Virus record (IMG/VR): IMGVR_UViG_3300029610_000212
DNA from: a virus
Taxonomy: Duplodnaviria; Heunggongvirae; Uroviricota; Caudoviricetes
Length of the DNA stretch: 21,329 bases
Strand: one strand, 5' to 3'
Shown here one piece after another: positions 3,103 through 8,316 of this stretch. Under the pieces are notes generated by a model. That model saw nothing but the letters and a program-made list of their open reading frames with translations. It searched no databases and was not told where the DNA came from. Positions within the stretch are counted from its first letter, which is position 1, and each line of letters starts with the position of its first letter. A program made the translations under genes and the position numbers.

Positions 3103-4735
3103 CCTACTGATAGCGATGATAATCTTTGCGCTAATCTGGCCTGCAACCGCGCTCAGAGCGGCAGTGAGCAAAACAACCTGGGCGGATGCTCCGGCACGCG
3201 AGTTTGTGTTTGTCGAAAACAACTCAGACGACAACTTTTTCGTCACTCCTGGCGGGGCGCTGGATCCGCGCCTGACCGGTGCCAACCGCTGGACCGGTTT
3301 AAAATACAATGGTTCAGGAACCATCTATCAGCAAAGCCTCGGCTACATTGATAACGGTTACAACACCGGCCTTTATACCAACTGGAAGTTTGATATGTGG
3401 CTGGAAAATTCACCAGTTTCATCTCCTTTAACTGGCTTGCGCTGCATCAACTGGTACGCAGGGTGTAATATGACCACCAGTCTTATCCTGCCGCAAACCA
3501 CCGACGCCAGTGGATTTTATGGCGCGACGGTGACCAGCGGCGGCGCGAAATGGATGCACGGCATGTTGTCAGACGCGTTTTACCAGTATCTGCAACAAAT
3601 GCCCGTCGGCAGCAGCTTTACAATGACCATCAATGCCTGCCAGACCTCTGTGAACTATGACGCCAGCAGCGGCGCACGCTGTAAGGATCAGGCCTCCGGC
3701 AACTGGTATGTTCGCAACGTCACCCATACGAAAGCAGCAAATCTACGGTTGATAAATACCCACTCGCTGGCGGAAGTATTTATCAACAGCGACGGAGTAC
3801 CGACTCTGGGCGAAGGGAACGCCGACTGCCGGACGCAAACCATCGGCAGCCGTTCAGGATTAAGTTGTAAGATGGTTAACTATACCCTGCAAACAAACGG
3901 ACTCAGCAACACCTCAATCCATATATTCCCGGCGATCGCCAACTCGTCGTTAGCCTCGGCCGTCGGGGCGTACGATATGCAGTTCAGTCTGAATGGCAGT
4001 TCATGGAAACCGGTGAGCAATACTGCCTATTACTACACCTTCAACGAGATGAAGAGCGCAGACTCGATCTATGTTTTCTTCTCGAGCAACTTCTTTAAAC
4101 AGATGGTGAACCTCGGGATCAGCGATATCAACACCAAAGATCTATTCAACTTTCGCTTTCAGAACACCACATCACCGGAGTCTGGCTGGTATGAATTTTC
4201 TACCTCCAACACGCTGATTATCAAACCCCGTGATTTCAGCATCAGTATTATCTCCGATGAATATACTCAGACACCGTCGCGGGAGGGATATGTTGGCAGC
4301 GGCGAGTCGGCACTCGATTTCGGCTATATCGTAACCACCAGCGGTAAAACAGCTGCCGACGAAGTGCTGATCAAGGTGACCGGACCCGCGCAGGTGATTG
4401 GCGGGCGCTCCTATTGTGTCTTCAGCTCCGATGACGGTAAGGCGAAAGTACCGTTCCCGGCGACGCTTTCCTTTATTACCCGCAACGGAGCTACAAAAAC
4501 CTACGATGCCGGGTGCGATGATAGCTGGCGGGATATGACCGATGCGCTGTGGTTGACCACACCGTGGACTGATATCTCTGGCGAAGTGGGGCAGATGGAT
4601 AAGACCACAGTCAAATTTTCGATTCCAATGGATAACGCCATTTCTCTGCGTACGGTAGATGATAACGGCTGGTTTGGCGAAGTCAGCGCTTCAGGAGAGA
4701 TTCATGTTCAGGCGACGTGGCGTAACATTAACTAA
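3092..4735 (+). CDS. ecpD: ECP/Mat pilus tip adhesin EcpD (547 aa)
   Basis: 547-aa ORF with an N-terminal signal peptide ([23 protein letters not shown]). ATG overlaps the usher stop by 11 nt. The length matches what I remember for EcpD, and it sits between the usher and the second chaperone. Confidence 0.8.
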
Positions 4736-5414
4736 GGCCCTGCTGACAGTGGTCTGTATGCTGGCGGCACCTTTGACACAGGCGATTTCGGTCGGCAATC
4801 TGACTTTTTCACTGCCGTCCGAGACTGACTTTGTCAGCAAACGTGTCGTGAATAACAACAAAAGCGCGCGGATATACCGTATTGCCATCAGTGCTATTGA
4901 TAGCCCGGGCAGCAGTGAATTGCGCACCCGACCGGTGGATGGTGAACTACTTTTCGCCCCCCGCCAGCTGGCGTTGCAGGCTGGTGAGAGCGAGTATTTT
5001 AAATTTTACTATCATGGTCCACGGGATAACCGCGAGCGCTACTACCGGGTCTCATTTCGCGAGGTCCCCACTCGTAACCTGACAAAACGCAGCCCAACCG
5101 GCGGTGAGGTCAGCACGGAGCCGGTGGTGGTGATGGATACCATTCTGGTAGTACGACCACGTCAGGTTCAGTTTAAATGGTCCTTCGATCAGGTGACCGG
5201 AGCGGTAAGTAACACCGGCAACACGTGGTTTAAGCTACTGATTAAACCAGGATGTGATTCGACCGAAGAGGAAGGCGATGCCTGGTATCTACGTCCGGGA
5301 GACGTGGTTCATCAGCCTGAGTTACGTCAGCCGGGGAATCACTATCTGGTCTATAACGACAAATTCATTAAGATTAGCGATTCCTGTCCGGCTAAGCCCC
5401 CTTCGGCGGACTAA
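4704..5414 (+). CDS. ecpE: ECP/Mat pilus second periplasmic chaperone EcpE (236 aa from ATG 4704)
   Basis: Track ORF 4659..5414; I prefer the ATG at 4704 because it is preceded by AGGAGAGA (4693-4700) and gives 236 aa with a signal peptide ([27 protein letters not shown]). Chaperone-like motifs match the partial EcpB ([25 protein letters not shown]). Confidence 0.8.
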
Positions 5415-5726: not shown

Positions 5727-6056
5727 ATGAGCAATCTGAATCCATGCATGACGTGTGGTGCCTGTTGTGCATTTTTCCGCGTCTCTTTTTACTGGGCCGA
5801 AGCCGACGATGCTGGCGGTACCATTCCCGCCAGGCTCACTGAACAAATATCCCCTTTTCACCGATGCATGAGCGGTACCAATCAGAAAAACCCCCGATGT
5901 ATTGCCCTTGCAGGAACACCGGGCAAAAATGCCTGCTGCACGATATATAAAAATCGATCGTCCACGTGCAGAGAATTCGCCATGTCTGGTGAGAACGGAG
6001 TCGTCAATGAGGCTTGCAATCGTGCAAGAGCTAAATACGGGCTGACACCGTTATAA
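5727..6056 (+). CDS. ykgJ: YkgJ-family cysteine-cluster protein (UPF0153; CxxCxxCC metal-binding motif)
   Basis: 109-aa ORF with N-terminal [11 protein letters not shown] and further Cys residues (CIALAG...CCTIY...C). GGTGA RBS precedes the ATG; an intrinsic terminator follows. Located between ecpE and yagU as in E. coli. Confidence 0.8.
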
Positions 6057-6079
6057 ATATACAATAATTAATTGCACTG

Positions 6080-6112
6080 CCCCGCCAGCTATAATCGCGG
6101 GGCTTCGTTTTT
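6080..6112 (+). terminator. Rho-independent terminator of ykgJ
   Basis: Stem CCCCGC (6080-6085) pairs with GCGGGG (6097-6102) around an 11-nt loop, followed by CTTCGTTTTT; 24 nt after the ykgJ stop. Confidence 0.6.
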
Positions 6113-6262
6113 CAGGTATAACAAAACCCGAAACTTCTTCCATCTGCCAGCAACAATGCCTCTTCCTCTATAGCGTTCTCCGGATCTACAGCATCCTGAA
6201 GTAGCGCGATGTACTCACTGGCTATCTGCATCAGAAAGTTAAAAACAATGTTTTTAACCTAT

Positions 6263-6292
6263 AAAAATGGCGCTGTATTTGCGCCATTTTTA
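6263..6292 (-). terminator. Hairpin terminator downstream of yagU (A-tract/T-tract flanked, potentially bidirectional)
   Basis: ATGGCGC (6267-6273) pairs with GCGCCAT (6281-6287) around a 7-nt loop, flanked by AAAAA on the left and TTTT on the right, so either strand reads hairpin plus U-run. It lies about 15 nt beyond the yagU stop. Confidence 0.55.
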
Positions 6293-6304
6293 TCATTCAA
6301 TGCA

Positions 6305-6919
6305 TTATCTGTTTGAGCCTAAAGGGATCTCAGGGTCTGGCTCATGAGTAATTCTGTTTCGTAAATCTCTGCGAATAATTTCAATGGACCAGAACCAGAC
6401 TAAATGTCCAAAAATTTCAGAAACATTCTCATACCACGGGAGATCAAACAGAGGTGGCGTCAGTCCCATGAGAGGGAATGAAATCATATGAACAAAAAGT
6501 TGGGCTAAAGCACCTGCCAGTAAGCCCTGCCAGAGTTTAATTTTTGGAAATACTTCAGCGACCACACAATAACCGACAGCAAACACTATCGAAAAGATAA
6601 TGTGCGTAACACCAACCCAGTTAAAGACATGCCCGGCAAAGGTATAAACAGCCGCATTGGGATCTGTCAGCCCCAACCAGTCTCGAAGAAAAATATACGG
6701 AGGATTGAGAAAATTACGGGAGCAATCAATTTGCCCAGCAGCCCTGATTAATGATTCCGGGCCACACGCTGCATTAAACATATCCACCGGGCTACGTGGC
6801 GGCAATGGAACTTCAGCCCCCCACTTCACAAATGCGGAAACAACGCCAGCAATCAGCCCAATGAATGCAGCAAGACCATAACGTCTGCGGTTTGGTGGAG
6901 TTTGTTCAAATATATTCAT
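6305..6919 (-). CDS. yagU: Inner-membrane protein YagU (DUF1440 family)
   Basis: 204-aa ORF with several hydrophobic helices ([48 protein letters not shown]). Length and neighbourhood (convergent with ykgJ) match E. coli yagU. Confidence 0.8.
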
Positions 6920-7126
6920 ATCTACCCTGCTTGTACCATTATGTTATACACCTCTTCAGGAGTATTCATAAAACAAGACAAATGTAAAGAACTGTATTGT
7001 TTTGTATAACCACATGGTTACCTAATCGCCAATTAATATAAGCTCCATTATTTCTCCATATTTTTATGTTAGAAGTGACAAGGAGAAATGTAATGTTTCT
7101 CTCAGAGAATATAAATCATTCCTTTT

Positions 7127-7151
7127 GCCCACCTTAATGGTGGGCTTTTTT
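7127..7151 (+). terminator. Orphan + strand intrinsic terminator (no annotated + strand gene upstream)
   Basis: GCCCACC (7127-7133) pairs with GGTGGGC (7139-7145) around loop TTAAT, followed by TTTTTT (7146-7151). The minus strand has no U-run after the hairpin. Just upstream is AGGAG (7081-7085) and an ATG at 7093 opening a 14-codon ORF. Confidence 0.5.
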
Positions 7152-7307
7152 ATGCAAAACCTGAACGTCCTGTGGTATTCCTCTGGCATAATAATTTTCG
7201 CGATTAACCAACAACCAGACCAGCAAAGACGCCACCACAAGCACAGCAACATCCATCAGGCTTGCCACACCCCATGCGTGCGGCTCAAAGCCGCCATGGC
7301 ATATTAA

Positions 7308-7496
7308 TCCGCTTGCCATTTTCGAACAGCTGATTGGTTTAGTCCGGTGTTTCCCTGCTTGCACTTAAAAATGAGCGGATGGGAAACTCTCGAAATGGTT
7401 CGTCGATATGCTCACCTCGCACCTAATCACCTTACCGAACACGCACGGTAAATAGATTCGATCCTGAACCCATCGGTCCCAAATCTGTCCCAATAA
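7308..7496 (+). pseudogene. Tyrosine-recombinase (phage integrase) C-terminal remnant with an internal stop
   Basis: The frame reads ...[59 protein letters not shown]. The xGWExxEMVxRYAHL block is the conserved C-terminal box carrying the catalytic Tyr of lambdoid/P22-type integrases. Similarity continues past the in-frame TAA at 7449-7451; there is no N-terminal part and the frame is closed upstream at 7305. Confidence 0.55.
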
Positions 7497-7539
7497 AAAA
7501 TAAGGAAGGTATTAGTGATGTGTAACTTATTGATTTAAA

Positions 7540-7586
7540 TGGTGCCGATAAGAGGAGTCGAACCTCCGACCTTCGCATTACGAATC
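7540..7586 (-). tRNA. Partial tRNA-Thr(CGU) 3' fragment (thrW-type attachment core / pseudo-tRNA; not a functional gene)
   Basis: The reverse complement reads GATTCGTAATGCGAAGGTCGGAGGTTCGACTCCTCTTATCGGCACCA: anticodon loop with CGT, variable loop AGGTC, T-stem GGAGG/CCTCT, T-loop TTCGACT, acceptor 3' strand TATCGGC, discriminator A and CCA. The sequence 5' of it on the minus strand (7587-7620) cannot form a D-arm or acceptor 5' strand. Confidence 0.7.
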
Positions 7587-7834
7587 TGTAGCACCAATCA
7601 TAACTATCTGTTTTAGCAAGCATTAACCGCATTCACTAAGCTATAGTTGATGGCACAAACAGAAAGTTGATGCATGATGTTGTCATGTGTATGTCACAAA
7701 TACGGCACAACGATCTTCAAACATGTAGACACACATCCACAGAAGAGCACAAAGCCTTGCAAGCCAGTGCAAGCTTTGTGTGTCTATGTTTTGTCTCAAC
7801 AACCACTTCAATTCTCAATCTGTTTAACCTAGAT

Positions 7835-8230
7835 ATTATCTCCTACAGCCTGCCAGAAAGGCCGGTGATGGAGATGATTAATACGATGCTGCACGATGCA
7901 TTCTCAGTGCTCGGACCGGAGAATACACCGTTGCTGCACACGGATCAGGGCTGGCAATATCGAATGGCAGGCTATCAGGCAAAGTTAAAGGCCCATGGAA
8001 TGACACAAAGTACGTCGCGCAAGGGAAACTGTCTGGATAACGCAGTAATGGAGAACTTCTTCGGCACACTGAAATCGGAGTGTTTTTACCTGAACAGGTT
8101 CAGCGATCTGAATGAATTGAGGAAAGCGATAGAAGACTATATTCATTATTATAACAACGAGCGGATCAGCCTGAAATTAAAAGGCCTGAGTCCGGTAGAA
8201 TACCGAACCCAAGCCCTGAAAGCCGCTTAA
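7835..8230 (+). mobile_element. IS3-family transposase (OrfB) remnant, 5'-truncated (C-terminal ~130 aa only)
   Basis: The C-terminal two thirds of track ORF 7667..8230 carry IS3-family OrfB motifs (HTDQGWQY, SRKGNCLDNAVMENFFGTLKSE, YIHYYNNERI...LSPVEYR). The first ~56 codons of that ORF show no transposase similarity and there is no OrfA or upstream catalytic Asp, so the element is decayed. Confidence 0.7.
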
Positions 8231-8316
8231 AATTAACTGTCCAACTTTATAGGGTCAGTCCATAGACTGCAGGCTTTTAGATTACGTAATTTAAAAACAA
8301 TAGTTATAGAAACAAA

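Follow-up and report, generated by a model that had tools for sequence, protein, structure and literature searches.

Why does a strong hairpin followed by a T tract stand upstream of the E. coli gene yagU, on a strand with no gene that leads into it? The question is raised by a window of 21,329 nucleotides (IMG/VR record IMGVR_UViG_3300029610_000212), by which we mean the whole stretch of DNA analysed, numbered from its first letter. A first-pass annotation had described an AGGAG motif, a well-spaced ATG at 7093 opening a 14-codon open reading frame (sORF), a stop codon inside the hairpin and a hairpin plus T6 terminator at 7127-7151 on the + strand. It offered three readings of this element: a small protein or leader peptide, the 3′ end of a small RNA, or the fossil end of a deleted gene. 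All of these coordinates hold (Table 1). The absence of an annotated + strand gene upstream is likewise borne out, as PGAP calls none from yagU to the integrase pseudogene, in identical genomes as well as in nearly identical ones.

Table 1. Features at and around the junction upstream of yagU (positions in the window)
Feature	Position	Strand	Remarks
yagU	6305-6919	-	
yagU upstream region common to K-12-type E. coli	6920-7080		pairwise alignment with the K-12 derivative EC600
118-bp orphan segment (SD-like motif, sORF, hairpin, 46-nt spacer)	7081 to ~7198		in scar-bearing E. coli only
SD-like AGGAG	7081-7085	+	7 nt before ATG; starts at the first base of the scar
14-codon ORF, MFLSENINHSFCPP followed by stop	7093-7137	+	ATG at 7093; TAA stop at 7135-7137, in the hairpin loop
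Predicted intrinsic terminator	7127-7151	+	7-bp stem (6 GC pairs), 5-nt loop, T6
PGAP "hypothetical protein", 61 aa (WP_042105316 / WP_000146240)	7134-7319	-	C-terminal third of phrog_1443
Tyrosine integrase 3′ fragment, last ~30 codons including RYAHL, SfII/SfV type integrating at thrW	7335-7451	+	PHROG and Pfam integrase matches
tRNA-Thr thrW 3′ fragment, 46 nt	7540-7585	-	alignment with island-free strains

The Element Begins at a Chromosomal Breakpoint

In the left part of the locus, ecpD, ecpE, ykgJ and yagU lie in succession. The ykgJ-yagU intergenic region carries a full-length match to Rfam IS009 (RF02111) at 6099-6299 on the - strand (204 bits against a gathering score of 117). Upstream of yagU, homology to K-12 ends exactly between 7080 and 7081 in the alignment with EC600. 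This junction lies 160 bp upstream of yagU, and K-12 continues for 256 more bases to paoA. Since the non-K-12 sequence starts at 7081, the SD-like motif starts at its very first base. The foreign sequence is a scar of ~500 bp, which in island-free strains is followed by an intact tRNA-Thr gene, so that the order there is yagU, scar, thrW, proA. The element had been placed between yagU and this scar; it is in fact the first 71 bp of the scar.

A megablast search with 6920-7160 finds matches in 4893 of 5426 complete E. coli genomes, most of which stop at query position 161-165, and the query is contiguous across the junction in 1298 of the 5426. Every inspected copy of the scar adjoins yagU.

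The first-pass annotation had also noted that the pao genes lie on this side of yagU in K-12, and paoA is indeed found there. The hairpin could then be what is left of the 3′ end of a chromosomal gene (pao, yagP) that K-12-type strains have and that was lost beside yagU. However, 7081-7205 has no detectable similarity to K-12-type genomes by blastn, even at E ≤ 0.01, and matches only the 1300 scar-bearing E. coli genomes. The K-12 stretch yagU-paoABCD-yagP-intF, compared by short-word blastn and by tblastn, gives chance-level matches only. We therefore give a chromosomal origin of this kind almost no credence.

Composition of the Scar

Four pieces make up the scar: the 118-bp orphan segment that contains the element, a fragment of phrog_1443, the 3′ end of an integrase gene, and thrW. 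The second of these is phage-derived. Nucleotides 7201-7328 are 83% identical to a gene of 97 aa which, in lambdoid phages and in Rac of BL21, a prophage, comes after the genes for the side tail fibres, and only positions 62-96 of the 97 in the phrog_1443 profile are present. The native stop of the fragment (VNRG, then stop) has been lost, and the frame continues to a TAA in the hairpin loop. The lineage of the window additionally carries a 5-bp frameshifting deletion relative to two other scar alleles (L006 and L020). Searched at the protein level, the - strand ORF matches scar alleles alone. As its C-terminal extension occurs in no full-length protein, the extension is read-through and not a native C-terminus. 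Judged from these alignments, the 61-aa "hypothetical protein" is a truncated, frame-shifted phage pseudogene fragment, which would merit annotation as a pseudogene.

The integrase stump, labelled "integrase, missing N-terminus" by PGAP, is followed by phage attachment sequence: 7369-7585 is 92-93% identical at the nucleotide level to the int 3′ end and attP of SfII, SfV, SfI and SfIV. A tRNA-Thr gene is annotated at the equivalent position in two island-free genomes (L001 and L006). ARAGORN finds no tRNA in the window, where a younger element has integrated into thrW, in tandem atop the old scar, and has cut the gene to 46 nt. An integrase 3′ end and an att site thus stand beside the thrW 3′ end, together with a second phage fragment (phrog_1443) from the opposite end of a prophage. 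This combination identifies the scar as the remnant of a phage integrated at thrW.

The 118-bp segment has a different standing. It is absent from 50,697 phage records (blastn with the DNA, tblastn with the 20-aa peptide), has no plasmid match by blastn, and does not occur in the Sf and lambdoid loci examined. Among GTDB species representatives, the exact hairpin occurs six times, always in unrelated organisms (Priestia, Thioglobus and Scalindua, for example); these look-alikes are convergent. IMG/VR, scanned with the exact hairpin pattern and with a codon-degenerate pattern for FLSENINHSF, contains it in the same E. coli context only. The latter pattern retrieves 50 scar copies and 6 unrelated chance matches from metagenomes. 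No phage, prophage or metagenomic homologue was found outside the scar, and none of the E. coli, phage, plasmid, GTDB, IMG/VR or metagenome collections yielded an intact ancestor in which the 118 bp follow a full-length gene. It is the position of the segment, between phage-derived sequence and the breakpoint, and not homology, that suggests a phage origin.

A Predicted Terminator without a Gene of Its Own

The stem-loop GCCCACC-TTAAT-GGTGGGC occupies 7127-7145 and the T6 tract 7146-7151. An intrinsic terminator calls for a GC-rich stem of 5 bp or more, a loop of 3-8 nt and, immediately after the stem, a U-tract, and the sequence has all three. By itself, the hairpin folds at -15.2 kcal/mol (z = -4.6), an energy that no sequence among 200 shuffles reaches. 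A scan of 6000-8500 finds six terminator-like sites, against 2.4 expected. The polarity is clear, as the T-run exists on the + strand only and the hairpin is followed by AAAAGG on the - strand. A role as terminator of a - strand gene was considered and rejected, because that strand provides no U-tract.

Back to yagU, there is neither a + strand gene nor a credible promoter to form a transcription unit that ends at the hairpin. The best match to a + strand promoter in 6880-7130 is 8/12, and none passed the standard scan. The hairpin today is without a gene of its own, and the unit that it served would have been deleted. At present it may at most stop stray + strand transcription that starts in the yagU promoter region and would run antisense into thrW.

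It is possible to imagine that the unit has not been lost but is short. Upstream of yagU, a promoter that is weak or divergent could drive a lineage-specific regulatory RNA of ~80-200 nt on the + strand, with the hairpin as its 3′ end. The strong predicted terminator with its U6 tail is what such an RNA would need, and a weak promoter-like pair, TTAATA-18-CATATT at 7033-7062, predicts a transcript of ~82 nt. Against this, the 8/12 match is a poor promoter, and the search for Rfam sRNA families yields only Hrs1 on the - strand, whose 20.4 bits against a gathering score of 56.4 (E = 0.74) are at chance level. Natural variation, discussed below, bears on the same question: the near-invariance of 7022-7165 across carrier alleles would suit a functional RNA, but the low-diversity valley is centred on the deletion junction, and alleles exist in nature in which the stem is weaker or 24 nt are missing from the body of the putative transcript. 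Overall, we consider a small RNA unlikely.

The Short Open Reading Frame

With its preceding A, the motif reads AAGGAG, and its 7-nt spacing to the ATG makes it a good SD. The arrangement AGGAG-N4-9-ATG occurs three times in the window, compared with 3.4 expected from shuffles, and the pairing is thus not statistically unusual. However, PGAP places gene starts at the other two, those of ecpD and ecpE, and statistics alone are no ground for dismissing the motif. Sequestration of the ribosome binding site, by pairing of 7081-7085 with 7122-7126, was also considered. The MFE structure contains it but the centroid does not, and it depends on G-U and A-U pairs; we rejected it as a regulatory structure.

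The good spacing, and the two real gene starts among its counterparts, would favor a translated micropeptide of 14 residues, newly assembled at the junction from yagU-divergent transcription, the junction SD and a relic terminator. Almost every sampled copy also has the reading frame intact, although those from metagenomes were chosen by a pattern that requires it. Conversely, neither the gene callers nor PGAP call the sORF, its peptide has no match in Pfam or PHROG and was not found in the literature, and it lacks both a homologue outside the scar and a promoter. The SD is AAGAG in roughly 40% of the carrier genomes, including ST131, and one strain has lost the ATG and eight codons. A micropeptide gene therefore appears very improbable.

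The position of the stop codon brings to mind a leader peptide. In the attenuators of the pyrBI and pyrE type, as in the window, a short ORF ends inside the terminator hairpin; a ribosome terminating in the loop would cover the left arm, block the hairpin and permit read-through into a downstream gene. Unlike those systems, the window offers no coding gene downstream on the same strand, where only the integrase stump follows and then sequence antisense to the thrW fragment. Moreover, the SD and start are not maintained, and there is no competing antiterminator: both MFE and centroid structures keep the terminator, and the only upstream pairing is weak and absent from the centroid. The missing target gene effectively refutes translation-coupled attenuation, to which we assign a negligible probability.

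The suggestion of a small protein or leader peptide thus finds no support, given the polymorphic SD, the start deleted in a natural strain, the lack of a downstream + strand gene and the lack of a homologue outside the scar. The sORF is probably not a gene, but either the truncated C-terminus of a lost one or a chance ORF.

Natural Variants and Diversity

The natural alleles show how little of the element is kept. AAGAG replaces AGGAG in Ecol_732 and in ~17 of 40 evenly sampled carrier genomes; the same change is found in 5 of 63 copies in an alignment that is mostly metagenomic. In strain Z1323HEC0477, the missing start results from a 24-bp deletion. The substitution C7129A, present in 3 of the 63 aligned copies, weakens the stem to -8.1 kcal/mol, and a T5 allele is implied by one protein variant. 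None of the motifs (SD, start, stem or T tract) is maintained throughout, which counts for a relic.

The diversity around the junction requires a more careful interpretation. Nucleotide diversity is 0.0035-0.0125 across 7022-7165, compared with 0.03-0.04 on both sides, and the valley is centred on the junction and not on the sORF. This fits a junction that had a single origin and was later flanked by recombination. Immediately to the right, at 7167-7250, two haplotypes are found (that of the window and that of L006, L009 and L020-L023), which differ at ~13 sites and by a 5-bp indel, corresponding to 15-20% divergence; L024 is a recombinant between them. Among the alleles that diverge so strongly there, 7081-7165 is almost invariant. 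The second haplotype hints at exchange with intact relatives that are absent from the databases. Selection could be an alternative cause of the near-invariance of 7081-7165. Within the sORF, none of the 30 positions 7096-7125 is variable, in copies that were pattern-selected for exactly these positions. At the 41 unbiased flanking positions, one variable site falls in the SD-ATG stretch (7081-7095) and one in the hairpin (7126-7151).

Comparison with Phages and Proposed History

The arrangement of the scar can be understood by comparison with intact phages. The int 3′ end lies ~90 bp from the thrW 3′ end, which places the old prophage between thrW and yagU, with int on the side of thrW and, on the side of yagU, the tail module and attR. 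The order on the int strand of SfV is int, attP, gtrA-gtrB-gtrV and an annotated Rho-independent terminator, with a convergent tail-fibre assembly gene 37 nt further on; the order in SfII resembles it. When the scar is circularised, the window hairpin takes the place and orientation of the SfV terminator, ~46 nt from the normal stop of phrog_1443. The terminator of the SfV/SfII gtr operon (NC_003444, 17770-17807) and the window hairpin both lie on the int strand beyond attP, at the end of the attP-proximal cargo region, and both converge within a few tens of nucleotides on the last gene of the tail module. Their sequences are unrelated (CCCCCCCC/GGGGGGG in SfV against GCCCACC/GGTGGGC in the window). 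SfV has also kept the cargo genes that the window has lost, and its convergent gene encodes tail-fibre assembly, whereas that of the window is the lambdoid phrog_1443. Cargo genes that converge on a phrog_1443 gene are found in phage 21 (sitBCD) and in PhiR49_2 (a dinI-like gene).

A second counterpart is found in phage lambda. Its tI/sib is the leftward, int-strand terminator and retroregulator of int, located just beyond attP and, after integration, next to attR at the far end of the prophage. This is the position that the window hairpin would occupy in a prophage. The window hairpin differs from tI/sib in that its surroundings show no extended dyad from which an RNase III stem could form.

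From this geometry, we propose that the hairpin and T6 tract are quite probably the relic Rho-independent terminator of a lost prophage transcript that read inward. As no intact ancestor was found, we infer the transcript from geometry only. An old temperate phage would have integrated at thrW, between thrW and yagU, leaving the hairpin at the right (attR-proximal) end, where it would have ended an int-strand transcript heading for the convergent tail genes. This transcript was most likely a lysogenic-conversion (cargo) operon beside attP, as is gtrABV in SfV; alternatively, int itself may have been transcribed up to the hairpin, as with lambda tI/sib. An internal deletion at ~7335 would then have joined what remains of int, its last ~30 codons, to the final third of the phrog_1443 gene. 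A second deletion may have begun a little upstream of the terminator and removed attR together with neighbouring chromosomal DNA (yagP-paoDCBA in K-12-type strains), ending 160 bp upstream of yagU and thereby creating the present junction. If the SD-like motif and the 14 codons are the truncated end of a cargo gene and not a chance sequence, the full-length ORF would have ended in RRNVMFLSENINHSFCPP and a stop codon ahead of the hairpin.

Of the three readings first offered, the fossil 3′ end of a deleted gene is therefore the best supported. Its pao version is refuted, and a degraded prophage integrated at thrW takes the place of the chromosomal gene.

The possibility that something new has arisen from the old parts should also be weighed. 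Stray yagU-divergent transcription, the SD at the junction and a recycled phage terminator might together have given birth to a lineage-restricted micro-gene, specifying either the 14-aa peptide or an RNA of ~80 nt. We regard such a gene as decidedly improbable. If it were real, about a quarter of the E. coli sequenced would possess it, ST131 and further extraintestinal lineages among them.

Later Occupants of the thrW Site

Beyond the thrW fragment, the window contains the younger element. An IS3-family transposase C-terminal fragment with rve domains, without an intact start, is located at 7667-8230 (+). It is followed by a gene for a YadA-like trimeric autotransporter adhesin at 8317-9609 (-), with domains for head, stalk and anchor; a 26-aa repeat in it is encoded by three tandem repeats of 78 nt (8587-8898). 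The adhesin is apparently cargo of the younger element. A P2/Mu-like myovirus tail module occupies 10526-20078 (-) and comprises tail-fibre assembly, tail fibre, P2 gpI, baseplate J, gpD, tube and sheath genes. Its layout (attP side, cargo, tfa, fibre, baseplate) matches that of SfV and SfII. A second thrW-like repeat at 19511 was rejected as a 15-nt chance match inside a coding region.

Other genomes show different occupants of the same thrW hot spot. In L005 (FDAARGOS_144, 3654-5305) and L007 (2127-2820), the scar is followed by IS1 pseudogenes, and L005 also has a fragment of an S6-peptidase (SPATE/vat-like). The vat islands sit between yagU and proA, beside thrW (PMC6592367), at the same chromosomal hot spot as the scar. 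Unlike them, the scar is older and is also present in island-free strains, and the younger element has no vat gene within the window.

Biological Meaning

The element is of a well-known kind; this copy is undescribed but ordinary. Its recognition removes a false lead, as the element is probably no hidden gene and is not a pao fossil, and in itself this matters little. It does reveal that the history of the thrW hot spot is layered, with the scar of an old Sf-type/lambdoid prophage beneath more recent elements bearing virulence cargo. If there were expression of the sORF or of an RNA from this site, the locus would offer a small case, and one that can be dated, of a gene born at a deletion junction.
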